Below, in pieces: positions 2,858-57,969 of a DNA stretch of 64,000 bases. The notes beneath the pieces were generated by a model. That model worked only from the letters and a program-made list of their open reading frames with translations, was not told the origin of the DNA and searched no databases. The stretch spans positions 256,593 to 320,592 of the forward strand of contig CAYFMS010000002.1 in the NCBI GenBank assembly GCA_964344415.1, read 5' to 3'. The translations under genes were made by a program, and so were the position numbers. Origin of the DNA: an uncultured Gammaproteobacteria bacterium. GTDB taxonomy: Bacteria; Patescibacteriota; Patescibacteriia; UBA9934. Each line of letters begins with the position of its first letter. The first letter of the stretch is position 1.

Positions 2858-4992
<2,135 letters not shown>

Positions 4993-5213
4993 GCAAAAGA
5001 ACGCCGCCAGTGCTCGCTTTGTCACATGCATAAGCGTCATCGCTCAGGCAAAACAGAGAGTAGAAATGTCTTTATTTTTCTTAATGCAATGATGCGTTCA
5101 TTCCTATCGGCTGTTTTGCAATTCCTCGCTCTTGCCGCATGCAGTGTGACAGTCTCACAGGTGGCGGCAGTTTCGGAAAGTACGCTTTGTTTGTGCGGTG
5201 AGTAGAACTTTAG

Positions 5214-5424
5214 AAAGTAATGAGTAATCATGTTCGTCCAGAGATCCTTCGACAAGCTCAGGATTTCAATCACGGTCGCACAGGATATTGGACGAACCCC
5301 GGTCGCGCAGTGAGTTAGATGAGATTTCGTTGAAGTTTGAGTAGTGGAATGAGCCGTACTGGAACGTACGGTGAATGAGCAACGGAAAACTGAAGCGAAA
5401 GATCGCTAACTCACAAGCGACTGC
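5214..5424. repeat. Dispersed intergenic repeat, family 2 (about 210 bp), beginning 2 nt after the pilD stop codon
   Basis: Shares gatccttcgacaagctcaggatttcaa, a cgtac...gtacg hairpin, ggtcgcgcagtgag and a terminal ctcacaagcgac motif with the copy at 16186..16396. Both copies end 1-2 nt from the stop of a minus-strand gene. Confidence 0.6.
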
Positions 5425-5425
5425 C

Positions 5426-6244
5426 CTAGAAGAAGGAGAGGTACCAGCCTAATATAACCTCCCCAAACAACATCACAACAATTGTAGAAATGGCGAGAAA
5501 TGTCCCAAATGGCATATGATCATGCAAACTTCGATGCTTTGCAAGAATAATATATATACCAATAATTGCACCTAAAATATAAGCAAAGAGAACAGAAATC
5601 ATGCCAAGAATAGGACCCAAGAGAAAACCGATGAGTAATCCCATGCGAATATCGCCTCCCCCAACCCAATGTCCATCGGATGCAAGAAATTGAATAGCAA
5701 AGAAAGCCCCTAGAATCAGCCCACCAAGCAGCATAACCGATGCATCTATGCCAAGCGCAATATTGAAAATGATAGTAAGAATAATTGCTGGAATGGTAAA
5801 TCGGTCTAAAATAACCTGCTTTTTGAAGTCAAAGACAAAAATGATTGTCAAGAAAATAACCATCACAGCATCTCGAACAAAAAGTGCCAGCCACTCCCCA
5901 TCCTCAACCCCGATCGGCAGTCCGTATCCAAATGCCGCACGCGCGAAAAAAGCAGCAAATAACACAGCCATCGCGAGTTCAATTGCTGGGTATTGCCATT
6001 CAATTGCCGTACTACAATGCCTACACCGCCCTTTTAATTTAAAAAAACTAAAAATGGGGATGCTATCCGTCCAGTGGATCGGGGTCAGACATGTTCTGCA
6101 TGACGATTTCTTTTTGAGCGAAAAAATCTCATCTTCTAAACGAAAAACCGTCACATTTACAATGCCACCGATCACAGCACCCAAGATCGATATTAAAATT
6201 AAATAAAGCCAAAACATATTACAAATCAAGGCAAGCTCCGGCAC
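5426..6244 (-). CDS. pilD: Type IV prepilin leader peptidase / N-methyltransferase (A24 family)
   Basis: 272 aa polytopic membrane protein. The tetracysteine zinc motif CRTC...CRHC lies in the first cytoplasmic loop and the conserved Asp-containing TM regions are present. An in-frame Met 9 codons downstream would remove the overlap with the upstream pilin-like gene. Confidence 0.85.
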   Translation of the reverse strand: MPELALICNMFWLYLILISILGAVIGGIVNVTVFRLEDEIFSLKKKSSCRTCLTPIHWTDSIPIFSFFKLKGRCRHCSTAIEWQYPAIELAMAVLFAAFFARAAFGYGLPIGVEDGEWLALFVRDAVMVIFLTIIFVFDFKKQVILDRFTIPAIILTIIFNIALGIDASVMLLGGLILGAFFAIQFLASDGHWVGGGDIRMGLLIGFLLGPILGMISVLFAYILGAIIGIYIILAKHRSLHDHMPFGTFLAISTIVVMLFGEVILGWYLSFF

Positions 6245-16019: not shown

Positions 16020-16185
16020 GTGGAACACAATTGGATCGGTAAATTGTGCGGGGAGTGTACAAAAAATATGACTGTTAGTCAATGAGAAGTAAGGTGAGGA
16101 AGGTTAGTCAGGTTGGAGGAGGAGATAAAAGAGATTGAGTAGATTTACCAGCGTATAGGTTTTAGCTGGTAGCTTGTAGGTACAG

Positions 16186-16396
16186 AAAGATCCTTCGACA
16201 AGCTCAGGATTTCAAATGCGATCGTGCAGGATGCTGGATGCACAAACGAGATAAAGGAGATTGGAGAGATTCTGGTCGCGAAGTGAGCTTGATGCTATTG
16301 CTTTGACATGCGAGCACCAGAGTAAGACGTACTGAAAGGTACGTTGTCGAGGAGCGGAGCATGGAAATGCAAGAGCGCAAGCTCACAAGCGACGCT
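16186..16396. repeat. Dispersed intergenic repeat, family 2, ending at the dnaX stop codon
   Basis: See the copy at 5214..5424. Both share the 27-nt gatccttcgacaagctcaggatttcaa tract and the ctcacaagcgac tract adjacent to the stop codon. Confidence 0.6.
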
Positions 16397-17984
16397 AATC
16401 GACGATTTTTCCTCCAAATGCGCTCGCAATACTTTTTGCCGAAGCATCCGCATCATTTTCAATTAATATTGGCTTTACTTTAATATCAGATCGCATAATC
16501 TCATTAATCCCCTCAGCCAGCATATCCAAATTCTTCATCTGTGACATCGTGTCGAAATGAAATGAATGCTCAAAACCGACCATCACGATGCCATCCACAA
16601 TCGACTGAGGCTTCGCACTATGCAAAACAAGAGGCAAAGAAATGCTTCTCTTCCCTACCGCTTCGACACATCGCCCCCACTTTGACTGTAAATCAGCAAT
16701 ATCAATGGGTAAAACTTCTGAATCAGATTTCTCATCTTCCGTTTCAGCCTTCTCTTCGGAAACAGATTCATTCGAGTCCTTGACCTCATCCACACTCTCC
16801 TCTTCCATCACTTCAGGCTTGCGATCCGAATCCACTTCTTTATTCACAGTCTCTGGCGCTGAATATTCTTCTGTTTTCACCGATGCAGTCTCATGAGCTT
16901 GCGTCGATTCACACAGCCCCAGAAAAGCTAATTCAAGAGCTAATTGAGGAATGGAATCATGCCGAGGCTTCATCTTCGCATCGAGAAGTGCATCGAGAAG
17001 TGCATGCAATCGGTCGGAGCCAGCTTGAGCAATCTCATTAAGCCCCTCGGCCGTTTCACTGTCGAGCAAATCATTCTTCGGACCACCGAGAGCAAGAAAG
17101 AGGGCATCACGTGTTAAATCGATAAGGAGATTATGCAAATGTTTTACGGCAGCCCCCTGCTGAACATATTGTTCAAGCTCAGAAATAACCAGCTTCGTGT
17201 TACATGAAATCCCAGATTTCAGAATTTGCATAGCCGCATTCAAATCCGTCATCGGCAGAACTAAATCAGCGATATAAGACGTGATTTTTTTCTCCCCGAG
17301 CGCAAGTAATTGTCCTAGAAGACTCTCTGCATCTCGCAAGCACCCTTCCGAAACGCGAATGATCGTATTCAAAACATCGCCATCAGCCTCAACTTTTTCC
17401 TGTTCGAGTATGTATTTCAATCGAGATCGGATCTGTTCCGCATCAAGACGCTTAAAATCGAAACGCATGCAACGAGAAATAATCGTTTCAGGAATTTTAT
17501 GCAGTTCCGTTGTCGCTAAAATGAAAATAACATGAGCAGGTGGCTCTTCAATCGTCTTGAGAAGCGCATTGAATGCCGATGTTGAAAGCATATGAACCTC
17601 GTCAATGATATACACTTTGAACTTTCCTGTTGTCGGCATGAAACGAACAGCATCGATAATATTCTCACGCACATTATCAACGCCTGTATGACTCGCCGCA
17701 TCTATTTCAATGATGTCGATAGCGCGCCCAACATTTGCTTCCGTACAATTTTGACAATCATTACAAGGTTCGGAATCATCTGTCTTTCTATTTAAGCAAT
17801 TTAATGACTTCCCTATAAGCCTCGCAATTGTCGTTTTTCCGATCCCACGCGAACCTGAAAAAAGATAAGCATGGCCTATTTCACCTGTTTTTATTTGATT
17901 CTGAACGGTTCGCGAAACATGGTTCTGCCCTGTAATGCTTGCGAATGTCATCGGTCGATACTTTCTGTAAATTGCCTGTGCCAT
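16395..17984 (-). CDS. dnaX: DNA polymerase III subunit gamma/tau
   Basis: 529 aa. AAA+ clamp-loader motifs (GHAYLFSGSRGIGKTTIARL, Zn-module CNDCQNC, DEVHML, SRC motif ISRCMRF) and an acidic C-terminal extension. Confidence 0.9.
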   Translation of the reverse strand: MAQAIYRKYRPMTFASITGQNHVSRTVQNQIKTGEIGHAYLFSGSRGIGKTTIARLIGKSLNCLNRKTDDSEPCNDCQNCTEANVGRAIDIIEIDAASHTGVDNVRENIIDAVRFMPTTGKFKVYIIDEVHMLSTSAFNALLKTIEEPPAHVIFILATTELHKIPETIISRCMRFDFKRLDAEQIRSRLKYILEQEKVEADGDVLNTIIRVSEGCLRDAESLLGQLLALGEKKITSYIADLVLPMTDLNAAMQILKSGISCNTKLVISELEQYVQQGAAVKHLHNLLIDLTRDALFLALGGPKNDLLDSETAEGLNEIAQAGSDRLHALLDALLDAKMKPRHDSIPQLALELAFLGLCESTQAHETASVKTEEYSAPETVNKEVDSDRKPEVMEEESVDEVKDSNESVSEEKAETEDEKSDSEVLPIDIADLQSKWGRCVEAVGKRSISLPLVLHSAKPQSIVDGIVMVGFEHSFHFDTMSQMKNLDMLAEGINEIMRSDIKVKPILIENDADASAKSIASAFGGKIVD

Positions 17985-22103: not shown

Positions 22104-22288
22104 GCGGTTTTTTGATTACAAATCTGTTTATGGTCCATAAAACAAGATTTGTAATCATCCTGAGCAAAGCGAGATCTTTGATCGAGTCTTTGGGAAGGAT
22201 CTTCGCGACTACGTCTCGTAATCCCAGCCTCCGAGCTACGGCGGGCAGGCAAGGCTGGGATTTCGCATTGCTATTTTCTGCTCCACGG

Positions 22289-22391
22289 GATTCCGGCTCG
22301 GAGGCCGGAATGACGAAGGGTTTCTTAGTACCTACACCCTACAACCTAAAGATCCGTATATTCGTAATATCCGTAAATCTGTAACGGTAAC
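22289..22391. repeat. Dispersed intergenic repeat, family 1 (about 103 bp), ending at the cysS stop codon
   Basis: gattccggctcggaggccggaatgacg hairpin, then tacaccctacaacct, then atccgtatattcgtaatatccgtaaatctgtaacggtaacc. The same modules occur at 57746..57969 and, inverted, at 4866..4953. An additional upstream hairpin CCCAGCC...GGCTGGG lies at 22225..22262. Confidence 0.6.
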
Positions 22392-24703: not shown

Positions 24704-27700
24704 TTACTCCTGTAAAGATTCTGTGTTAATAGTTTCTTCTTCCGCTGGCGCTGGTTCAGGTGAAGATTCAACAATTGGCTCTTCGATAACCACTTCTTCA
24801 ATAATCTCCTCTACCTGAGGTGCTTCTTCTACCTCTTCAACCACCGGTTCGATAGTAGATGTTTCGACAACATCCACTACCTCTTCCGTTGTAACTTCAT
24901 CCTCTTCTTCAATCGTCTCCTCTTCGATTACTTCTTCGAGAACCGGTCCAAAGACCTCTTCTGTCACTTCTTCCGTGTTTTCAATTGATTCTTCTTGCGC
25001 TGGCTCTTCTTCTACGATTTCAGAAGAAGTTTCAGTCTCAGTAGAATCCTCTGTTACCTCTTGCTCAGTCGATTCTTCAACTTGCTCTTCAACAACCGGC
25101 ACATCTTCTACATCTATCGTTTCTGGCTGCTGAGGCACGATGATTTCAATTGTCGATTCCTGAGCGTTATCTGATCCATCCGCGATGACAATTTCAATTT
25201 CTTCTGTCGTACCATCACTCACGAAAATCTTTCCTTCCTCAACCGCGAATGCATGCCATGAGAAGTCAAGGTCATGTCGCACTTCCTGATTAATCTTGAT
25301 TCGGAATCCAGCCGTTGTTTCATCAAGTACCGTGTATTTGAAGCTTGCAAATAGATTCGCTTCGCCACGCGGAGACGCTGTTACAATTGGCTGATATTCA
25401 TATTCTTCTTCGAATTCAACTTGTACATATCGGTCGCCTTCCAAGATTCTAGCAATTCCGGCCGTATCAGCCCCGAATGTTGCATGCTTCTGCACATGAA
25501 TTCCTTCCGTGAATTCCTGCAATGAAGCAATCTCTACTGATTCTGAACCATCAACCGTAACACCAGCAGCCTCTTGAAGACGTTCGAGTACAGCGACACG
25601 TGCTTCGAGATCCGTGAATTCTTGCGCAAGATCATCAACGCTGATTACGAGATCCGCTACTGTCAATTCAAGTGCATCTATACGTCCATCCATCAGGCTC
25701 ATTTCTTCTTGACGTTGTAATTCTGAAGCCGTGACCGCATCATTGATCGCTGCATCAATACCGAGCTGATTAAGCGTCGCTTGCGTATCTGCCGTGAGAA
25801 CGGCGAAGACGTCGTAATTTTCAAGTGCCACATCAATTGAATTATCGATTCCAAGTCCGTCAATTCGCTGATCAATGGTGTCATTAATTGTCGTCGTAAG
25901 GTTGAGTCCAGCGATTTGTCCATCTACGATAGCCGTAATGTCTTCATCGAAGTTCAATGTTTCAAGCGCGCCGCTAATCATAAGCTCAACCTCATCCTCG
26001 ATTTCCATTGCTGCTACATGCTCCGCAACCTCTGCTTCAACTGATTCAACCGTCAAGCTCTTATTACGACGAGAAATGAGTACATTTACCATTCCCGTTT
26101 CTCCAGAGAGATCTTCGAGTGCAACACCGACGGTTGGGTCTCCCGGACTCGCTTTCATTGCATATCCTGGAATTGACGCTGATGTCAGTGAATCACCAAC
26201 ACGAATTTCACCATTTTCATTCGTCACATGTGCATCAACCTGTCCGAGCATACCTACGATTGCATAATGTGCATTGTCGACTGTTTCATCTGTTGTATTA
26301 CCGATAATGGATGGATTGTCAGAGATAATACCCATCACATTACCATCAGAAGCCCCAGAACATCGCTCTACCGCATTATCTCGTGTGATGTCCACACAAA
26401 CGATTTCACCGGCAGCAAGGTCAGACTGAACAGAGTAGAAACGCTCGGCATAGTCGGCTCCACCAGAGTTGTAAGCGACATCTGAGAATGTTTCACCATC
26501 CTGAGCAACACGCCATACAGAATCAGATGTTCCATCAATATCGACATTGAATGCTGCGAAGTTGAATGTGTCAGTTGTTTCTGAATTTGTTTCAATTTGC
26601 ATGATTCCCATTCGTCGACCAGTACCGTCACCCGTCATAGCAAGCGCTCCAGATTCTGCCATGATATGAAGTCCCGCTCCAGCCGTTGAAAGCGTTGCTG
26701 ATGCATAATCTACACTGATAGCTTGTACCGTTGCAGAAGCGATATCAACTGCGAGTGGCCCATCGAATCCAGCCGTACCAGTTCCTAAGAAGTCAAATGT
26801 TGGATTCGTCGTCGCATTTCCGAATGTAATCGCTTCAGATGAATTTGTCGTATTGATATTGATGTAATTATCACTTCCTTGCTGCAAGTCATATGCATCG
26901 GTTGTATTGTCAGTCATTGAAGGCGCAAGTGTATCTGAGAGATATGCCATGGTTCCTGCCGCATCCTGAAGTGTAATTGTTCGAGAAGCAGAGAATCCAG
27001 ATCCGTCGAGTACCAATCCCGTATTTGCTGCAACGCTGAAGTTCATGTTTGCATTTGGGAATGTAATTGTCTTATCTGTCGTTGTCGGTTCCGTAATAGA
27101 GAAGAATGTTTCTTTCGAATCCGCACCAGCCCCTTCAAATGCCAATGCCTGCGTTGTTCCCATGATTGCACCGTACATGTAGATCTTGTCTCCAAATCCA
27201 TTTCCAAAGGTAGAATTATCATAGACCGTCAAATCATCTACCGTAATATCTGAGGCTTGTGCCGTACCGATGTCAACACCATCAATTGTTCCACCGTCAA
27301 TATCAACATCACCCGTGAAGTGAATATCTCCTGTCGTACCAGCATCTGTAAGCGTCATGAGTGTATTTGTTCCATCGGTGAACGTGAGCACCCCTCCGTT
27401 ACCTATAGAGATGATTGGACTTGTTGTATCAAAACTCAAGTCTCTATCCCATCCATCTCCGATACGAATTGCCGACTCAAGTCCGTCAGCGTCAGCAGAT
27501 GCAATGTCATCGATATCGAGTCCAATGACTTCATCCGTTGATGCTGCATGATTCGCACTTGCAATATCGAGTACTAATGCTCGGTAAATGTCAGATCCAT
27601 CACCTGCACCGGCTGTAAAGTCAATTTCCATTCCCTCTTCTGAAGCAGCAACTGCAGCCGTCTTCACAAGATTTACATCATCTGCAGAGTCTAATGTGAT

Positions 27701-30700
27701 ATTGAAGTCTCCACCGGATAGATCGAAGTCGCCATCGCTGATTAGGATATCTCCAGCCGTGAGAACAAGAGCATCTGTTCCATCAGCAGATCCATTAATT
27801 GTCACCGCTCCGCTACCAAGGAATGAGAAGCTTGGATTTGTTGTTGCATTTCCGAAGGCGATATTCTCTGATGAATTTGTCGTATTGATATTGATGTAAT
27901 TATTGCTTCCTTCCTGAAGATCATATGCATCCGCCGTATTGTCAGTTAGACCACTACCACCGCCCGTTGAAATCGCCGCAAATGATCCACCATCATTTGA
28001 GAGCTCCCATTGGTCAGTTGAAGCATTGTAACGAATCTCTCCGTCACTGTCCGATCCCTGATTTGCCAAGATTCGTATATTTGCCCCTGACCCAGCATTA
28101 TCTTCATCAAGTTCTATAACCGTTCCATGAACATCGAAGTCTCCACCAGCCGTGAAGAGTCCTGTTCCTGTTGTAATTGCTTGATTATTTGTTGTATTGA
28201 AACTGAATGCTCCAGAACTATCGAGTGATCCGTCAGAGAGCGTCGTCGTTGCACCCGCAATGAATGATCCATCGGTATAAACACTTCCTTCAATACCTGC
28301 AGTTCCCGCAACAAAGAGGTCATCTCCTCCGAGTGAGAAGTCTCCATTTGCGAGAGTTTCAGATGTTGACGTTGAACCACCAACGATGAGGTCTTCGTCG
28401 AAAAGTACATCATCCGCATCTACATGAATGGCATATGTATCTGAACCCTCAATGTACAAACCAATATCCGTAGATCCAGCCGTTTGATCTTCAATTTGAA
28501 TACCGTAATTCGTTGTTAATGTCCCAGCTGGATTAAACGCCGACTGGACCTGGAGACCGGCACCAGTCGTGATCGTTCCTGTACTTGTGTTCATTACACG
28601 TCCGGCCAAACCAGCAGCTTCTGTGATTGTTCCCCCCGTCTGATGAATAACACGACCACCACCACCAGCAGCAAGTGTAACTGTACCAGCTGTACCAACA
28701 TTACTTGTCACAAAAGCTCCAAGGAAACCACCAGCCTCATTGACCGTTCCTGTTGATTCATGAGAGAAAATTCCCGTCGCACCTGTTGAGAACGTATTAC
28801 TGTCAAATGCACCTGACTGCACAGCCGCGCCATCCAATTGGAGTGTTGAATGAGAACCATGCGTGTACGTACTTACCGTCCCAGTATCTATCGTCAATTG
28901 CGCACCAACTCCATACCCATGCACATTCGTAGCTGAAATGTCAGCACCTCGTCCCGTTGCGCTTACCGTACCCGATGTCGCCGTTGCATTATAAGTAACA
29001 TCAAGTGCTGATCCAGAATCATTATATGTAGCTCCTGCATTGTTGACCGTAATATCTTTATCGATTCGAACAGTATCCGCCGTATCTGTGCGAGTAGCCG
29101 CTGCTGTCAATGTTCGATCTGAAACGAATCGTCCAATAGCTCCAGTCGCATCAGCTGTAATTCCTGACGCCGTGTGATCCACGTTAAAGACATTTGATGT
29201 AGTAATAGCATTACTCGTCGTACCAACATCAACCCCTATGCCACTTGTCAATCCATCAAAACTCAAAGATGCACCCGAATTTGTCGTGACCGAATCACCC
29301 GTCATTGTGAACAATGTTTCATTATTCGCACTTGTAATTGCATACTGAATGTCCGTTGCAACAACATCTCCATCTGAATCAATTCTCCAGTAATCCGTTC
29401 CTGAACTATCTTCAATTTCTATAATTTTCTGGTTTTGTGTGCTGTTTGCTTGAATGAGCAACTGCACCTCATCCGTATCACCATCGACAGAGAGTTTTGC
29501 AAGAGATGCTCCTCCAATACCGACATTGTCTGTAGAGGTTGAAAGGGTGATATCTGTTCCTCCATCTGTCCAACCAGCTGCTTCAGAGATACCTCCGTCT
29601 AGAATGGTGAATTCAGCCGCAGAAATAAGCGTTCCAGAGATGTCGAAGAGATTGGTGAATCCTCCGCCTGCATCTACCGTCTTGAAGACAGTACCAACAA
29701 CATCATCTGTGTCTGAGTTGTCTGCAACGAAGAGTGCGTCTAATCCTTCTGTACTTGCCGCATTGTCGAGATACAGTCCGTATTGAGCTGTCGTTGAACT
29801 TGTTGTGTCTTCAGCTGTGAATGTATGCACAACACCATTTTCACTTGTTGCATCCGTAAGCGTTCTTGCAATAGACCATGTTTCTCCTGCTGTACCGGTA
29901 ATACTAGTTGCAGCGTCGAGTGCAAGTGCATCTGCGAATTCTGTGAAGTCGAGTGTATCTGCTGTAAGGTCAGCTCCGTCTACATTAGATAGAGAATTTC
30001 CTGTTCCATTCGCATCAAAGGCTACACCTGTAATCGCTCCTGTTGTAGAAATATCCCAGTCAGATGTGTTGATCTGCATGGTGTCTCCACCGTCTCCAAG
30101 AAGAACAGCTCCGCCTGGTGTAAGAGTGAATGCTCCTGTTGTTGTGAACGTGGTAGAAGCTCCATCGAATGAGACGTCTGTATCTGCGACCGCAAGATCA
30201 CCGTTAAGATCAATGGTACTTGAGGCAAGAAGTGTTCCATCAAGCGTAACAGCTCCATCTACTTCAAGTTCACCCTCAATGTATGCATCTTCTCCGTCCA
30301 TGGATGCTGTTCCCGGTGTTCCATTTCCTACACGTAGATTTCCTGTTGAAATGCGGAAGCTGTCTGCTCCGGCTGCAAGTGAGAAGTCGAAGAGATCATC
30401 CGCATTCGCATCAGTGTCTGTGATAGATCCGTCTGCATAGGTCGTTGTAGACCCGGCGATGAATGATCCATCCGTATAGATGCTACCTTCTACACCAGCC
30501 GTTCCCGCAACGAAAAGGTCATCTCCGCCGAGTGAGAAGCTTCCATTTGAGAGGGTTTCTGTACTAGAAGTTGAACCTCCAACAATAAGGTCTTCGTCAA
30601 ATCGAACGTCATCGGCGTCAGCAAAGATGGCATATGTGTCACCACCTTGAACGCGAATACCATAGTTATTCGTATTTCCAGTTACATCTTCGATATCAAG

Positions 30701-33700
30701 TCCAACACTTGTACCCCCTGAAGCGATATTCATGAGCTTCACATTAATACCTTCTTCATTCGTCACCGTGTGACTACCGCTAGATTGATCTACATTTTGA
30801 ATATTGAGTCCTGAAACAGCCGTTGTTGTTCCACTTGCATGCTGAACAATCACACCCGCGAAATGCCCAAGTGCCTCATCAATCGTACCGGTACCCGCTG
30901 TTCGAACAATAGAAGCGCCACCAACCGCCTGACCAAGCTGCCCGAATGCAGCCGTATCTTCACCAGCAATAAGCAGATCTACGCTACCAAATAATGATCC
31001 AGTTGAAGCAGCCGTTGAATCATGTCGCATAACATTGCTTCCAGCTGAAATCGTAGCACCACCAGCAAGTGGATTTTGTGCTGTGCTTGCAGTACCACTA
31101 ACCGTCAATTCATTCGCAGCCGCATGCAATTCACCTGTCTGTGTACCTGAATTGATTGTCATGGCAACACTAAGTGGGAAATGCTGAGAAGATTGCGCTG
31201 CGAGGGTTTCGTCAATTGTAACCTTTCCGGTACTATTTAGATTTAATTCGATGTCATTTCCTTGTCCATCAGCCTTAATTTCTATATACGACGTAGAAGT
31301 TCCCTCATTTGTGCGTAATTGTAGGTTATTATCACCATTTGAACTGATATTTCCTGTTCCACCATTACCAACTACAATTTCAGAATCGGCATAAATATTA
31401 TCTTCAAATCCGGCAGATCCGGCCACGAAGAGATCATTCCCGCTCAAGCTGAAACTTGAATGTGCAATTGTCTCTGTTCTACTTGTCTCTCCACCGACAA
31501 TGACATCATCATCAAATGTTGCATTTCCTGCGTCCACAAGAAGTGCGTGAGCATTCGTAATAGTCTGATTCGTTCCTGCTGCAGGAGCATTATTGATGTA
31601 CCAAGTTGCAGCATCTGTCGTCGTTACACTTGAATTTGTTGCTGCAAGCGTTGGTTGCGCGAAAGCATTGAACCATACTTGAGTTGCCGTTCCTGACCCC
31701 GCCGTCGCCGTATCGGTGTATGTAGCACCACTTTGATCAAAGAGAACACCAACCGTTGAAATACCTCCGCTCGTCGCCTGTGGAGATTGTGCAATTGTTC
31801 CTGTATTGGTCACTGACCACAAGTCCGTACCACCAGAGTTCTCAATTACAGCAACATGTGAATTTTGTGTACTATTTGCCTGTACGAGAAGTTGAACCTC
31901 GTCCGCGCTTCCATCAATGAATACATCATTTGAAACGGTCAATGTTCCATCTGCCGTGATTGCTCCAGCGCCAGTAATGTCACCCGTTGTAGAAATATCC
32001 CAGTCAGATGAATTAATAGACACAGTATCTCCGCCGTCACCAAGGTCTACTTGTCCATTTGCTGTCACAACTCCAGCACCAGATACAGTGAAGAGATCAC
32101 CTCCGGCACTATCTTCAAATACGACAAGGTCAGAAGTTTGCGTTCCATTTCCTTGTACAAGGAATTGAATTTCATCAGCATTTCCATCTAATCCAAGATT
32201 CGCAGATAGATCAGATGCTGATCCAATCGTTACATTATCTGTCGCTGTTGTGAGTCGCACAACGGTTCCATCATCTGTCCAGCCACCTCCTCCGCCACCG
32301 CCTGAGGCTAGATCCGTCCACGTCGTTCCGTCATCTGTGTTCACATAAACTGCTCCAGCTTGATCAAGGAAAAGTGAACCAGCAGCAGCCGTCAATGCAC
32401 CATTTGGTGAGCCTGTTCCAGTATAAAAGCTTGCTGTATCAGCATTTGTAGTGTCACTAAGTGTCAAGAATGCCGTATCTTCAGCTTTACTCACAGTGAT
32501 AGTGCCATCCGTACCAACCGTTCCCAGCCCGGTTACTACTCCCGTCGTAGAGATATCCCAGTCAGATGTATCGATCGAGCCTGTCTCTCCATTATCCCCA
32601 AGGGTAAATGCACCATTATGAATAAGTGCTCCATCACCACGAACCTGGAAAAGCGTATTTCCACTATTATCTCGCACTCTTACATCTGTTGCTGAGGTAT
32701 CCGTTCCAAGCGAAAGACGAGTTGATCCAGCTGTAGATGTATTGTCGATATCGAAGAAATCGCTTGTTGCATCATATCCGAGTCGAATATCACTATCTGT
32801 ACCAAACCGAATCTGCTGGTCATCCTCAACGCGAACCTGAGAATGCAATCTAACCTTCTGTCTAAATCGCGTCCATTCAGATCCGTCTGTAGAGTCTATT
32901 TCAATGTAATTTGTTCCTCCCTGCCCGATCACAAATACATCACTGGTATTATCAACAATTTCCAGATGCGTCGTTCCAGTAGGATCCAAGTCGATATCTG
33001 AACCATTAAAGTCGAAAGATCCTCCAGTTACATTAATAGCAATGCCATCGCCAGCACCTGCATTTGCCGCGTCAACATTCAGTGCGACAATATTTGATGC
33101 ATTATTTCCATCTCGATCAATATTTACTGATGCGGTCGTTCCAGTATCATCATGGTCGATATTTAGTCCAATACCAGCCCCGTCTTGATCGATAGATACT
33201 CCAGTTCCTGCCGCATCCTGCCGAATAGCAAGTGGAATTGCGCCAACTGCAGCCGTATTATCATTAACGACATTTAATAGAGGGCGTGAATTTGTATCTG
33301 CACTGTCAGAACTAATACGCAAGCCATTTCCTGTTGTCAATGAATCGAATGTCATGGTTGCGCCGTGATTTGTTGTAGCGCTTGAAGTAAGGGCGAGAGC
33401 TGTTTCATTTGCAGTATCAGTAATAGAAAGAGCTCCGTCCGCAGTAATTGAACCAATACCTGTCAAATTACCTGTAGCAGAGATATCCCAGTCAGAAGAA
33501 TCTATAGCAACGGTATCTCCCCCATCACCAAGATCAACTTGACCATTCGCAGTAACCGTTCCTGTACCCGAAATTGTGAAGAGATCTGCACCTGCACTTG
33601 TTTCAAAAACGGCCAGATCAGATGTTTGTGTTCCATTCCCCTGAATAATAAGCTGTATTTCATCCGTATCACCATCAACAGTGAACTTACCAAGAGCTGT

Positions 33701-36700
33701 CGCTGTTCCGATAGAAACGCTGTCTGTCGATGTATTGAGCCTGATATTCGTCCCATCATCTACCCAACCTGCAGCACTAACCGCTGTCCCGATACCTAGG
33801 AATGCTCCTCCATCATTTGAAATCTCCCATTGATTATTTGACGCGCTATAACGAAGTGTTCCGTCACTGTCAGATCCTTGATTCGCAACAATATCGAGGT
33901 CTGCTCCAGAACCTGCATTATCTGCATCAAGAGTAAGCGTTGTTCCATTTGCAGATATAGCTCCTCCAGCCGTGAAGAGTCCAGTACCAGTCGTAATTGC
34001 CTGATTATTTGTGGTATTGAAGCTGAATGCCCCAGAGCTGTCGAGCGATCCATCAGAAAGTGTTGTTGTCGCTCCTGCAATGAATGAACCATCTGTGTAA
34101 ACACTTCCTTCAATTCCGGCTGTTCCTGCTACAAAGAGGTCATCTCCGCCGAGAGAGAAGCTTCCATTTGCAAGTGTCTCTGTTGCAGATGTTGAACCTC
34201 CAACAATAAGGTCTTCGTCGAATCGAACGTCATCAGCGTCAACAAATAGCGCATAAGTATCCGCGCCAGCGACATAAACACCATAGTCATTCGTTCCGGC
34301 TGTCATGTCCTCGACATATAATCCATAATTATTTGTCAAAGTCCCTGCAGCAATAATTGGCGCCTTTGCATAGTATGCCGATCCAAGCGTAATTGTTCCT
34401 GCGCCCGTCTGAATGATCTGACCACCGAATCCACTCGCAAGCGCCTGCGTCGCTGTTCCAGTGTTATTAACATACCCAATTGCACCAATCACTTCGCTAT
34501 CTACCGCCGTTGTTGTTGCTACACCAAACTGTCCACCCGAAATATCTTCTACGCTGCCAGATGTATTCACGCTCACATAACCATTTACACCCGTTGGAGC
34601 ATTAGAGGTAGTAAAATCACCCGAGTTTGTTGCACTGCCAGAAATTGATGTCTGTCCATGCAAACTATATGCCGCTCCAGATTGCGTACCTGATGTAAAG
34701 GTCAATGTATTTTGACTCAAAATTCTTGTTTCGGAACTTCCTTCAAGACCCGACCATCCAATATCAAGCGCATTTACTCCAGATCCATAGCCACCACCAC
34801 TCATCGAAACGTCGATTGCATCTGCCGTTATATTAAGCGTTCCAGATGTCTCTGTACCAACAACATCAATATTCACTACATCTCCGGAGTCATTCAATGT
34901 ACCCGAGGCATTATTCACCGTTGGGCGACGTTCAATGAATATATTGCTTCCTGAGTCCGTACGTGTCGTTGCTGCTGTTAATGTTCGATTACTGATCACA
35001 CGTGCAATTTCACCACTAAAATCGGCTGTTATTCCGCTTGCTTCATGATCGAGGTTAAGCAATCGACCACTTGTAAGTCCATTACTTGCAACACTGATAT
35101 TTGCAGCCGTTCCAGAAGTAAGTGATTCAGCAGCAATATCAATACCAGCTCCGCTATCCGTTGTTGCTGATGATGAAATGTCCAATGCACTAATATCACG
35201 GGATTCTGTAATTGAAGCACCACCACTACCAATATTCAACCCGCGTGATCCACTACTTATCCCGTCTCCTGAAGTTGAAATATTCAATACATGCCCCGTC
35301 CAATCAAGTGTCCCTGCCGTCTCGACACCCCCATAAGACAAGTCCATCACATGCCCAGAATCATTCAATGTTCCACTCGCATTATTCACGGTAGGGCTCT
35401 TCGCAATAGATACGATATTACCTGAGTCATTTCGCGTTGCCGCTGCAGTCAAGGTTCGCGTTTGATTGATGCTAAATAGCGTTCCCGAATAATCAGCCGT
35501 TATAGCTGTTGGTTGATGGAAGATATTAAATGCCGTTCCACTTGTAAGTGCATTATTATTGAAATTGTATTCGATTCCAGATCCAGTAGTCACGCTATCA
35601 CCTGTAATATTTAATATGCTACCAGATGTCGTTGCTGCACTAGACACAACCGATAATGCAGATTCATCCGCCGTATCCGTTATGTTCACAGCACCATCTG
35701 AAACAGTGAAATCATTCGCAAATGTTACATTTCCATTATCAGCAAAGGTTGCAAATGGCGTACTTGCATCTTGAATCACGAAATCCTCTGTATTGTTTAG
35801 ATTAATGACAAGGTCTCCTGAACCATCAACCGTAATCGACTGACCATTATTATATGCATCATCGAGTGTCGTACTTCCACCACCTGTACTAATAGCCGCA
35901 AAACTGCCGCCATCATTACTAATTTCCCAGCGATTATTCGCTGCACTATAACGAAGTGTTCCATCGCTGTCAGACCCTTGATTCGCTACAATATCGAGGT
36001 CCGCTCCAGAACCTGCATTATCTTCATCTAGTTCAATTGTTGTTCCGTGTACGTCAATATCTCCACCGGCGGTAAAGAGCCCAGTTCCTGTAGTGATTGC
36101 TTGATTATTTGTCGTATTGAAACTGAATGCTCCTGAAGAGTCTAGTGATCCGTCGGAAAGTGTTGTTGTCGCTCCTGCAATGAATGATCCATCCGTGTAC
36201 ACGCTTCCTTCAATACCGGCTGTTCCTGCTACGAAGAGGTCATCTCCTCCAAGTGAGAAGCTTCCATTTGAAAGGGTCTCTGTTGCAGATGTTGAACCTC
36301 CAACAATAAGATCTTCATCGAAACGACCATCACCCTGATCAACCAATAATGAAAGTCCTGTTCCTGCATTCTGGATACTAAGCGCAACCGGATTATTCGT
36401 CGTGTCATCCATGTCAATCAATACACCAATCTCATCATCCGTATCATCGACTTGAACCTCTAATCGCGCACCCGGAGTCGTCGTACCAATACCAAACTCA
36501 CCCGTATCTTCAATACGAGCCTTCTCATCATTATTAACAGAGAATTCAATATAGTCGTCATGAACAAGACTGATAGCAAATTGGCCATCCGCATCAGCAA
36601 TACCGAATTGTGGATTTGATGCCGCGCCATCACCGATAATTCGCCCCTGAGATCGGTCTCCACCGTCATCGTCTGCATTGAAAATAATTCCACCAGTAGA

Positions 36701-39700
36701 AGTGTCATCCCACTTATAGTAGATATAGTTATCATCACCATTTGAAACAAAACGCGTTGCATTTCCAGGGGTGTTTGAATCATGGAACTCAATACGTTCA
36801 ACTTGACCAATAGTACCAGCAGTTCCAATTCCAAGAGTATCTTGGAAAAGAAGATTACCATCAATATATACATGATTTTCTACACCAAGACTGTCTGCAA
36901 TAAAGACATCGTCACCACCAAGCGAGAAAGAGGCATTTTCAATTGTTTCTGTAGCAGATCCAACCGTAAGATCGCTTCCAAAGTCAGCATCGCCGTCAAC
37001 ATCAAGCGTGCCATCAATGAATGTTGCACCTTCGATTCCAGCTGTTCCCGCTACAAATAGATCATCTCCTCCAAGAGTAAATCCGGCCTCATCAATCGTT
37101 TCCGTACTAGAAGTTGAACCTCCAACGATAAGATCTTCGTCAAATCGAACATCTGCAGCATCTGCCCAAAGCGCATATGTATTTGCGCCGGCAATATATG
37201 TTCCATAATCAAATGTAGACGCATCGATTCGAATACCGGTACCAATACCACCCGTTTCCGTTGTTTGTGTAATCTTAATTGCATCAATTTCACTTGTTGC
37301 ATTATCTGAAGCATTTCCGTCTAGATCGATAGATAGCGCACCCTTTTGAATACCTGCACTCAATGCATTGATCACGTCGGATTCTATTCCAACCGCGAAT
37401 TGATCATCAGATGTACCTGTATATAAATTGTGAGAGAATGTCGTTTTTGCCTGGCTCGCCTCATTCGTATTCCCGCTGAAAGTAAGTTCATCATCAGCAC
37501 CACCGACATTAACAAGAAGATTTTCTCCCGGTGCAATCGTAAAGCGATTTGCGGTAGCTATTGACGTATTTCCGCTGCCAGATTCAGAAATGCTAAAAAT
37601 ATCAGTACCGGCGCTATTTTCAAATATAGCAAGTTCATTTGTTTGCGTTGAGTGACCCTGCACCAAGAACTGCACCTCATCCGTATCACCATCTACTGAG
37701 AGTTTTGCAAGAGAAGCTCCTCCAATACCAACATTGTCTGTCGAAGTAGTGAGAGTGATATCTGTTCCTCCGTCTGTCCATCCTGCTGCCTCAGAAATAC
37801 CTCCATCAAGGATGGTGAACTCAGCCGCAGAAATAAGTGTTCCGCCTATATCGAAGAGATTCGTGAATCCTCCACCAGCGTCAATAGTCTTGAAGACGGT
37901 TCCGACAGCGTCATCTGTGTCTGAGTTATCTGCAACAAAGAGAGCGTCGAGACCTTCTGTAGAAGCTGCATTATCTAGATAAAGTCCATATTGAGCTGTC
38001 GTTGAACTTGTTGTGTCTTCTGCTGTGAAGGTATGTACAACTCCATTTTCGCTCGTTGCATCTGTAAGCGTTCGAGCTATAGACCATGTTTCTCCTGCTG
38101 TACCAGTGATGCTCGTTGCAGCATCGAGGGCCAATGCATCTGCAAATTCTGTAAAGTCAAGAGTGTCTGCCGTAAGATCTGCTCCGTCTACATTAGATAG
38201 AGAGTTTCCTGTTCCATTCGCGTCGAAGGCAACGCCTGTGATTGCTCCTGTCGTTGAGATGTCCCAGTCAGAAGAGTTTACAGAAACCGTTCCATTATTA
38301 TCACCAAGTGTAATTGTATTTGACCCACTTACAACGAATGCTCCGTCTGTTGTATCAATGGTAACTTGATCAAGAGTTGTCGCTCCATCCGCATCAAGTG
38401 TTGATCCAAGCGTTGTTGCACCAACAACATCAAGTGCTCCGTCTGTATAGATATTTCCCTCAATTCCAGCCGTTCCTGCAACGAAGAGATCATCTCCACC
38501 AAGTGAGAAGCTTCCATTTGAGAGTGTTTCTGTAGCTGATGTCGATCCACCAACAACCAGATTTTCATCGAAGCGCACATCATCGGCGTCTACGAAAAGT
38601 GCCAATGTATCCGCACCTGCTACGTAAATACCATAATCAGTAGTGGCAGATGTTTGATCATCAACATATACACCATATGCCGTTGTAACAGCAGCCGTTC
38701 CGCCAAGGTTTGGATCCGCGACATTCAAACCACGAAAATCAGTAACCGCGGTAGCACCTGCAATAGTTGAAGATGCGTCAAAAATAGTTAAGCTTGGCAT
38801 GGTCGCGTCACCAGAAAGAGATGTATAAGCTCGGACAACATCTGCCTCTGTAATAGTGTGCGCATCACCCGCAGCTAAATCAACAACAGAGAAAACACCA
38901 CCACGAGCATCAGAAACCGTACCGGTGAATCCGTCATCGATCCAAGCCTCACCCACAATACCGTTTATTGAGTTAATTGTACCTGCGGACTGTCTTACAT
39001 TTGCACGTGCGGCATTTCCATAGTATGTACCGGTATCATTTGTTCCATTATCTGCAATGGAAAGGTTAACTGCACCCCAGTTATATGAACCCGTGTCATC
39101 ACTACTTACACTTCGGATGTTCTTTGTTGTAAAAATACGTGTGTTATTTTCAGACACCTCGTCGAACACATTTGAAACGAATGCAACTGTATTATTTCGA
39201 ACAAATGGATATGTGTCAGAGAAATCATTACCAAGTGCCCAAATCGCATCAATCCCAGTAGATCCCCCCAGTCCAAAATCTTCTGGATCACCCAAGCGCA
39301 TGACTTCAGTGCTGTTAATATTCCAAAGCTGAGATGTGTCATCATTCATGTCAATGACCAAATCATTACCAGTTGCATCCCAAGAAATAGCAGCATCGGG
39401 ATCAGCAGCCGTATTACCAAATGTTAATTCAATATCATCAGCTAGATGAGCCTGACTATTTACCAAAATATCACCACTAACCGTCAGTTCATTCGCAAAC
39501 GTTACATTTCCGTTATCTGCGAAGGTTGCAAAAGGAGTTCCAGCATCTTGAATAACAAAATCCTCAGTATTATTGAGGTTTACGACTAAATCACCAGATC
39601 CATCCACCGTAATTGACTGGCCATTATTGTATGCATCATCAAGAGATGTATCCGTTGTTAACGCCAATGTCCCTGTTGAGGTTGGAAGTGTAAGCGTAAT

Positions 39701-48057: not shown

Positions 48058-48261
48058 AGGAAAATGAATTCGTTATTTCTGAGGAAAATTGTTTTAGCTG
48101 GCGGAACAAAACGAGCTTCACATCGAAATCGCTGTTTTTTCTTGGAAAATGAGATGAGATATTGGTACAGATCAAGCGACGAAGCGATGCGTACTTGAAA
48201 CGTACGAAGAGCTAGGAGCGCAGATGTAAGCCAATATATCGCTCATTTAATAGAAAAAACA

Positions 48262-48301: not shown

Positions 48302-48332
48302 AGAGTTTTGTGACCTTATGCAAACCAAGTTG

Positions 48333-48377
48333 AAGTGCCGACTGAATCCGTTTCACGGATTGAAGTCGGACTTCTCA
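48333..48377. other. Imperfect long inverted repeat between the antiporter stop and the hrcA promoter. Likely a terminator or insulator hairpin.
   Basis: gaagtgccgactgaatccgtttcacggattgaagtcggacttc. There is no clear T-run. Confidence 0.3.
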
Positions 48378-51163: not shown

Positions 51164-51499
51164 TCAGTCAGCGTAATCCGGACACCCGACGTTGCGATGA
51201 CCGATGTTGTCGCACCATGCGAGGTGGTCAGCTTCTTGCCGAGCCAGCACCGCCGGTGGAACCTCGATCTCCCCGTGCTTGGGGCAACCGACGTTCTGGT
51301 GGTAGATGCTGTCGCACCATGCGAGGTGGTCAGCTTCTTGCCGAGCCAGCACCGCCGGTGGAACCTCGATCTCCCCGTGCTTGGGGCAACCGACGTTCTG
51401 GTGGTAGATGCTGTCGCACCATGCATCATGTCCGATGGTGTCGACGGAATCTCTGCAGGCAGCGAGGACGGTGATCACGATGAGAACAAGTGTGCGCAT
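51164..51499 (-). CDS. Small lipoprotein with internal 34-aa tandem repeats, in a GC-rich island
   Basis: Start set at MRTLVLIVITVLAAC (lipobox LAAC), preceded by AGGGAG. The HLAWCDSIYHQNVGCPKHGEIEVPPAVLARQEAD repeat occurs twice exactly plus a divergent third copy. GC-rich relative to the flanks. Confidence 0.5.
   Translation of the reverse strand: MRTLVLIVITVLAACRDSVDTIGHDAWCDSIYHQNVGCPKHGEIEVPPAVLARQEADHLAWCDSIYHQNVGCPKHGEIEVPPAVLARQEADHLAWCDNIGHRNVGCPDYAD
51211..51414. repeat. Perfect 102-bp tandem duplication (2 copies plus partial flanking copies) inside the lipoprotein gene
   Basis: tcgcaccatgcgaggtggtcagcttcttgccgagccagcaccgccggtggaacctcgatctccccgtgcttggggcaaccgacgttctggtggtagatgctg is repeated identically at 51211..51312 and 51313..51414. 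Confidence 0.8.
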
Positions 51500-57493: not shown

Positions 57494-57745
57494 AATCAGG
57501 GCCAGTATACCATGATTTGTTTTGCGGCAGAGAGGGAGATAAAAGAGATTTAGGAGATTGAAGAGATTCTGGTCGTGCAGTGAACTTTATTTACGCAGCA
57601 ATTAGGGAGTAGAAAATAGCACGTATACATAAAATAGTCCGTACGGACGAAAAAGTGCAGAACTTTTAATGGCTCACTCGTCTCGAGCATTCCATATAAG
57701 TACCGATCGACACTTAAGCTCGGAAGGATCATTTGAACTCCACGG

Positions 57746-57969
57746 GATTCCGGCTCAGAGGCTGGAATGACGATTTCTGATGGATCCCGGATCTCCGCTT
57801 CGCTTCGTCCGGGATGACACCGTATCTTGGTTTATGAAACATAAACAGATACCGTGTCAACTGCGTTCTATGTTCTACTCCATCATTGCTACGCAAACGA
57901 TAATCCGTATATCCGCATCATCCGTAAATCTGTAACGGCAACACTACACCCTACACCCTACAACCTAAC
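57746..57969. repeat. Dispersed intergenic repeat, family 1 (extended copy with extra internal hairpins), ending at the secF stop codon
   Basis: gattccggctcagaggctggaatgacg, then inserted hairpins (CCCGGAtctccgcttcgcttcgTCCGGG and gacaccgtatc...gataccgtgtc), then atccgtatatccgcatcatccgtaaatctgtaacggcaac, then ctacaccctacaccctacaacct. Upstream at 57530..57745 are family-2-like motifs (gagataaaagagatt, agagattctggtcgtgcagtga). Confidence 0.6.

Follow-up and report, generated by a model that had tools for sequence, protein, structure and literature searches.

The intergenic repeat found beside pilD and dnaX in this genome (family-2) is a non-coding, mobile and mosaic element that is not one unit but consists of two parts, a short hairpin module, termed T1, and an imperfect hairpin of about 124 nt. 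The long hairpin constitutes a previously undescribed family of its own that is kept folded by selection, and its new copies come about through insertion at gene boundaries, into DNA that is not translated. T1, on the other part, is a REP-like module which is pan-bacterial and not specific to family-2. As an overall explanation we favor, at about even confidence, a repeat of the ERIC/BIME/MITE kind that is carried in untranslated regions as a stem-loop, with the long hairpin as its core and with T1 and a linker attached in two of the copies.

Genomic setting of the repeat copies

The window, i.e. the whole stretch of 64 kb analyzed here, is part of the ENA metagenome contig ERZ930065 (PRJEB17505; 744 kb). 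Based on the homologues of DnaX, PilD and HrcA, the source organism is placed within the Patescibacteria, near Candidatus Uhrbacteria. The GC content of the window is 44%, nearly all of its genes are carried by the minus strand, and the GC skew of the plus strand is negative and uniform throughout. The copy located after dnaX reads identically in a contig of 768 kb from a sister sample. At the gathering threshold, Rfam 15 yielded two tRNAs in the window and nothing else.

The names pilD and dnaX, which an earlier note on this DNA had assigned from the sequence, are correct and supported by protein domains, with both genes on the minus strand (Table 1). The same note had described the repeat as fused directly to the stop codons of these genes; it does adjoin both stops, at a distance of 4 nt and 1 nt, respectively. 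The spacers holding copies 1 and 2 measure 579 nt (pilD locus) and 375 nt (dnaX locus), and rough arithmetic from these lengths gives a chance of ~1% per locus for a repeat edge this near to the stop if placement were uniform.

Table 1 Features of the composite repeat and its surroundings in the window
Feature	Position	Strand	Remarks
Composite copy 1 (T1 hairpin, linker and long hairpin)	5239..5421	+	pilD-ligA spacer; purine-rich strand, antisense to pilD
T1, copy 1: AGATCC-TTCGACAAGCTCA-GGATTT short hairpin	5242..5266		REP-like; the 27-nt identical tract
Long hairpin, copy 1	5300..5423	+	model score 141.8 bits
pilD stop codon TAG	5426-5428	-	4 nt beyond repeat end
pilD, prepilin peptidase	5426..6217/6244	-	Peptidase_A24 and A24_N domains
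Composite copy 2	16183..16393	+	dnaX to tRNA-Gln spacer
T1, copy 2	16188..16212		identical to T1 of copy 1
GAGAT-rich insert GAGATAAAGGAGATTGGAGAGATT, ~27 nt, copy 2 only	16241..16270	+	from alignment with copy 1
Long hairpin, copy 2	16273..16395	+	orthologous to L124 11611-11735
dnaX stop codon TAG	16395-16397	-	1 nt beyond repeat end
dnaX	16395..17984	-	DNA_pol3_delta2, AAA and DNAX lid domains
Long hairpin, copy 3, intact, without T1	48135..48259	+	covariance model 50.1 bits, E 2e-10
CIRCE operator, perfect: TTAGCACTC-N9-GAGTGCTAA	48262..48288		upstream of hrcA-grpE-dnaK
Promoter TTGACA-17-TACAAT, overlapping CIRCE	48302-48274	-	upstream of copy 3
Decayed copy: GAGAT module and GGTCGTGCAGTGAA kept, hairpin unrecognizable	57530..57700	+	84% to copy 2, 50 nt

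Mosaic make-up of the repeat

A blastn comparison within the window aligned copies 1 and 2 with 64% identity over ~207-220 columns (E 1e-17). The repeat of ~210 bp reported earlier at 5214-5424 and 16186-16396 is therefore real and non-random, with the correction that the homology of copy 1 starts at ~5239 and not at 5214. All identical tracts quoted for it were found in both copies, namely the 27-mer GATCCTTCGACAAGCTCAGGATTTCAA (5243-5269 and 16189-16215), GGTCGCG(C/A)AGTGAG (5301-5314 and 16274-16287), CGTAC-N6-GTACG (5355-5370 and 16328-16343) and CTCACAAGCGAC (5410-5421 and 16382-16393). The notion of a single 210-bp unit had to be abandoned, since its best-conserved tract is the separately recurring, invertible and pan-bacterial T1 module. 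Similarly, the GAGAT-rich insert of copy 2 is a recurring module by itself, which is also present at 16116-16145, at 57530-57568 and at 11994-12040 of L138, a locus of the source genome situated 10 kb left of the window.

Three further fragments had been attributed to the same family. The one at 57530-57590 is genuine (84% over 50 nt, E 7e-9) and belongs to a decayed copy that covariance models miss, with just the GAGAT module and the first half of the stem left; the one at 48120-48230 represents a full third hairpin (copy 3); and no family-2 membership was found for 22180-22288, where other repeat modules are located. Altogether, three hairpins in the 64 kb window are intact and a fourth copy is decayed; no other intact copies were seen in the ~84 kb examined. 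No conserved ORF is shared between the copies, leaving the repeat without coding capacity, and a coding role is further disfavored because the copies differ by a 1-nt indel and by compensatory changes.

Other repeats were also observed in the spacers of this genome and its relatives. A repeat of ~230 nt (family X) occurs at 4955-5190 (minus-strand reading) and at L138 14628-14848, ~90% identical by eye; it has a GCCGCCAC/TGGCGGC closing stem, ends with the perfect palindrome CTTACTTTTCTTTAAAGAAAAGTAAG and holds an ORF of 59 aa (5026..5205; gene-caller annotation) with no Pfam match. The hairpin module GA(A/G)GTCCGACTTCAATC-loop-GATTCAGTCGGCAC(T/C)TC is found at 48330-48372 and, at a different locus, at ~11838-11880 of L124, a contig from a relative with a 60% identical DnaX, the apical parts being different. 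A spacer hairpin module, TCGTCATTCCGGCC..GCCGGAATGACGA (4925-4958, 22284-22316 and 57741-57774), and a G-run module, GGGTGTAGGGGGTAGGGTT with ATCCGTA repeats after it (4866-4929, 57897-57960 and 22330-22390), both occur in the two orientations. At L138 12268-12530, a tRNA-Ser is followed by duplicated fragments resembling a tRNA 3' end (TCCTCTCCGCCA twice), maybe an integration scar, and at L143 5463-5800, in a relative at 50% identity, the 3' part of tRNA-Gln and a terminator-like hairpin are duplicated around an insert of ~190 nt. Within the window, the minus strand also carries an ORF of 5238 aa (24704-40420) with extensive internal repeats and no Pfam match in the precomputed table, and a tandem 102-nt unit (two full units and the start of a third) lies in or beside a small minus-strand ORF at 51180-51424.

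Structural conservation of the long hairpin

From GGTCGCG.AGTGAG to CTCACAAGCGAC, copies 1 and 2 each form a single imperfect stem-loop of ~124 nt with the CGTAC/GTACG motif at its apex, which is predicted on both strands of both copies. The hairpin of copy 1 is closed by GUCGC/GCGAC and GUGAGUUAG/CUAACUCAC, and its apex reads CCGUAC-UGGAAC-GUACGG. All 45 modelled pairs (45/45) are kept between copy 1 and copy 2, with 11 pairs changed on both sides, compared with 0-1 double-changed pairs in the slid-partner controls. A covariance model built from these two copies alone (R1) gave two new full-length matches: copy 3 in the window, and a hairpin at L124 11611-11735 (54.5 bits, E 1.6e-11), located between dnaX and tRNA-Gln, just past the stop of dnaX, in the relative with 60% DnaX identity. 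Over 0.94 Mb of unrelated control loci, the same model had zero matches. The alignment of the four sequences has 94.8% of its cells paired and shows compensatory change in 26/39 pairs, these counts leaning towards structure as a consequence of fitting the alignment to the model. We conclude that the hairpin is kept by selection, since a change in one arm is matched by a compensating change in the opposite arm, and a conserved secondary structure, as suspected in the earlier note, is borne out. All four copies, including the L124 orthologue, have one orientation.

A second covariance model built from the four sequences (R2) revealed no additional copies over 182 kb, and searches of 4840-5440 and 16020-16400 against Rfam gave nothing relevant at E<=10. 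The closing-stem pattern GGTCGYGNAGTGA...CTCACNNGCGAC had no exact-pattern match in IMG/VR; ten matches in JGI metagenomes were rejected as GC-rich chance matches with unrelated interiors.

T1, a widespread short hairpin

The 18-mer core of T1 has at least 120 exact matches in IMG/VR viral contigs with GC contents of 31-72%, and the sequence of its loop is conserved across this whole range. In these contigs the extended consensus is RY-CCTTCGACAAGCTCAGGA-YGA(R)CGG, and a wider set follows ATCCTTCG-NNNN-GCTCAGGAT(GACA), where NNNN is CTGC, CTTC, ACAA, ACAG or CTCC. The viral occurrences are mainly intergenic and show no orientation bias with respect to genes (21 vs 21 downstream of genes). Megaplasmids of Comamonas and Sphingobium carry the consensus hairpin at 6-20 unannotated places each. 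Among GTDB representative genomes, the 27-mer shared by copies 1 and 2 has a single match, in a Sphingomonas MAG of 62% GC; it comprises T1 only and not family-2, and lies in a spacer adjoining an apparent ribosomal-protein gene (judged by eye). In the source genome itself, T1 stands alone at L138 14588-14615, where it is inverted relative to the adjoining 230-nt repeat as compared with the arrangement in the pilD spacer.

Four viral loci carrying T1 matched no Rfam family. Neither DNA sequences nor spurious-peptide strings led to anything relevant in the literature, and no paper with the T1 sequence was found in the library searched. The 3' part of T1 resembles the 5' end of 16S rRNA (GCTCAGGAYGAACG), possibly by coincidence. 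An inverted pair at 22122-22172 and 57800-57850, a module with GTAATCATCCTGAGCAAAGCGAGATC, is another variant of the T1 superfamily. The T1 family, with a loop conserved in sequence between Sphingomonas, CPR and phages, has no Rfam entry.

Insertion of hairpin copies at gene boundaries

The relative with 60% DnaX identity has the same pilD-ligA synteny with a spacer of 591 nt, but no hairpin is located there. Copy 3 sits between a Na+/H+ exchanger gene and hrcA-grpE-dnaK and begins 2 nt from the CIRCE operator. Here, the distance from CIRCE to the hrcA start is ~205 nt, vs roughly 10-35 nt at two loci of relatives (L246 and L247; HrcA 72% and 63% identical), in which the promoter-CIRCE unit is conserved and no hairpin precedes hrcA. 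In a more distant relative, at 50% identity, tRNA-Gln follows dnaX almost directly. Because relatives lack the copies at pilD-ligA and at CIRCE-hrcA, the element inserts, as the earlier note had proposed. From this pattern of presence and absence it follows that the dnaX copy is old, whereas the insertions at pilD and hrcA are specific to the lineage.

Targeting of stop codons, proposed on the basis of the first two copies, does not hold as a rule: copy 3 falls within the predicted 5' UTR of the hrcA-grpE-dnaK operon, where the nearest stop codon is ~120 nt away, and no target-site duplication was detected, the flanks of the copies sharing no direct repeat (L246 was included in the comparison). 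Likewise, no common target sequence is visible at the insertion sites, no terminal inverted repeats were found beyond the hairpin itself, and the gene calls from the ~84 kb examined include no transposase, tnpA, tnpB or RAYT.

In three assemblies of the relative with 60% DnaX identity, the contigs (L124, L125 and L126) stop ~140-500 nt downstream of dnaX, in the case of L125 inside the long hairpin. The repeats in the spacer after dnaX may be the cause of these assembly breaks.

Strand preference and possible functions

The two strands of the long hairpin differ markedly in their pairing. All 10 G·U pairs fall on the strand antisense to the flanking genes, the purine-rich one, and A·C cells number zero; the remaining mismatches are all purine-purine, and purines make up 78% of the unpaired bases on this strand. 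Its predicted fold is 8-19 kcal/mol more stable than that of the sense strand, with plus-strand z-scores of -6.1 and -5.7 for copies 1 and 2 (minus strand: -2.1 and -4.6). This strand also contains more G than C, opposing the genomic GC skew. By the usual criterion, such a pattern points to the antisense strand, and not the mRNA, as the one on which the structure is selected, which conflicts with a stem-loop acting in UTRs. This asymmetry, the conserved purine-rich internal loops and the common orientation of the four copies would all suit a family of small structured RNA genes or a cis-antisense RNA, read from the plus strand convergently with pilD, dnaX and hrcA and with its 3' end at the stop of the neighboring gene. 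We nevertheless regard such genes as somewhat unlikely: a sigma-70-like promoter was found on the antisense strand at none of the four hairpin loci, despite the textbook TTGACA/TACAAT consensus clearly in use by the organism, no terminator follows the hairpin, the upstream sequence differs between subfamilies, with T1 and the linker in copies 1 and 2 only, and no Rfam family corresponds. A more far-reaching proposal, which we consider unlikely, is that, in Uhrbacteria-like CPR, the 124-nt hairpin represents a new structured-RNA class or else a transposition intermediate of ssDNA or RNA that is specific to one strand. It would be read antisense to gene ends, present its purine-rich loops as protein-binding sites and multiply by duplication-free insertion aimed at gene boundaries, and T1 would be the local member of an undescribed hairpin repeat crossing phyla of bacteria and phages.

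Strand-specific pairing that tolerates G·T is also expected of a non-autonomous ssDNA transposon of the IS200/IS605 type (PATE-like), whose HUH transposase would read the terminal hairpins of one strand (T1 and the long hairpin) and insert the element without duplication and in one orientation relative to replication. Consistently, copies 1 and 2 have a hairpin at each end and neither TIR nor TSD, insertions are polymorphic between relatives, and the orientation is uniform within a region of uniform GC skew. However, IS608-type elements use the lagging-strand template, whereas the better-pairing strand here would, judged by GC skew, be the lagging-strand sequence. With T1 missing from copy 3 and from the orthologue, tnpA and tnpB not seen in the 84 kb, and no shared target tetranucleotide, an origin of this type appears quite improbable. 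Least probable, and very much so, is a role in ending transcription of the upstream gene, as a terminator or as a Rho-loading (rut) region, the signal being a C-rich, G-poor sense RNA after the stop. The location directly 3' of stop codons, the CU-rich tracts after copy 2 and a sense-strand C/G ratio of 1.6-1.8, as against the G-rich coding strand of the genome, would agree with it, but rut sites are unstructured, quite the reverse of the long helix conserved here. In copies 1 and 2, no T-run follows the long hairpin on either strand, and ordinary canonical intrinsic terminators are present elsewhere in the genome. Moreover, the position of copy 3 in the leader of the essential chaperone operon hrcA-grpE-dnaK, which termination would silence, argues against any terminator role; an intrinsic terminator was rejected on these grounds.

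Since the promoter overlapping CIRCE is directly upstream, copy 3 is predicted to be transcribed in sense as a leader of the hrcA operon. This sense promoter, together with the lack of an antisense promoter and of a U-tract, favors the UTR-borne stem-loop of the ERIC/BIME/MITE kind. In such a repeat, the copies would be transcribed with the flanking genes, and the stem-loop would form at the very start of the 3' UTR (pilD and dnaX) or near the 5' end of the mRNA (hrcA operon). By analogy with REP/BIME, ERIC and Correia elements, it would most likely be a passive structure for stability or processing, or it may merely be tolerated. The closeness to stop codons would then mark where insertions are tolerated or first land, and not a targeting process.

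CPR/Patescibacteria have tiny genomes that are usually described as repeat-poor. Here, several hundred spacer bases beside the essential dnaX, pilD and hrcA-dnaK consist of stacked hairpin modules, one of which is structurally selected and has recently moved. Should the hairpin work at the RNA level, it would represent a new element of regulation or stability for organisms that cannot be cultured; a purely selfish hairpin would be useful for tracing recent mobility within a reduced genome.

Comparison with known systems

TIGR-Tas guide arrays, described from CPR and phages, are composed of tandem dual repeats of 8-12 nt with spacers of ~9 nt next to a Nop-domain gene (PMC12045711). This architecture is absent here, the element being a dispersed single hairpin, and a TIGR-Tas array was discarded. 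The toxin-antitoxin-like RNA considered in the earlier note, or any type I toxin-antitoxin or small-RNA locus, is not supported, given that the copies contain no toxin ORF or other conserved ORF and that no antisense promoter-like site is present at the four loci; nothing points to the ribosome-rescue signal considered alongside it. Also set aside were the VR/TR of a DGR and the msr-msd of a retron, with no reverse transcriptase seen in the sequence and called genes of the 84 kb, an SRP- or 6S-like RNA, with no Rfam match, and read-through or recoding of the TAG stops of pilD and dnaX, both of which are followed by an in-frame TGA (by inspection).

Among mobile elements, bacterial MITEs are similar in being small, non-coding, multi-copy, hairpin-folding and insertion-polymorphic, but differ in that no target-site duplication, discrete terminal inverted repeats or parent IS was found here. 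With IS200/IS605 PATEs, the repeat shares terminal hairpins, the lack of TIR and TSD and the single orientation; no transposase was seen in the 84 kb, however, and the strand predicted to be active is the wrong one relative to replication.

ERIC/IRU sequences of Enterobacteria are imperfect palindromes of ~127 bp. The long hairpin is of near-equal size, and it is likewise non-coding, with the whole element forming one imperfect palindrome, located in transcribed untranslated DNA beside genes, variable in its presence between related genomes and modest in copy number. As a single imperfect hairpin of ~125 nt in intergenic DNA predicted to be transcribed, it is ERIC-like in form only, and the phylum is another. 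Furthermore, ERIC elements are found in either orientation; the four copies described here all have the same one, and the strand-asymmetric pairing of this hairpin is unlike ERIC.

T1 corresponds to REPs in being a short, multi-copy, intergenic and orientation-free hairpin, and it fits the 20-40-nt palindrome of REP/REPIN sequences, whereas the 124-nt hairpin is far longer and does not; neither a RAYT nor an IHF site nor a TA duplication was identified. REPs are normally species-specific, in contrast to the 13-nt loop of T1, which is conserved across phyla. REP/BIME of E. coli and NIME/Correia of Neisseria form mosaic spacers of short hairpin modules at 3' gene ends, and their stem-loops can stabilize the upstream mRNA. 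The spacers described here resemble these mosaics in that their hairpin modules occur in variable order and orientation, at 3' gene ends.
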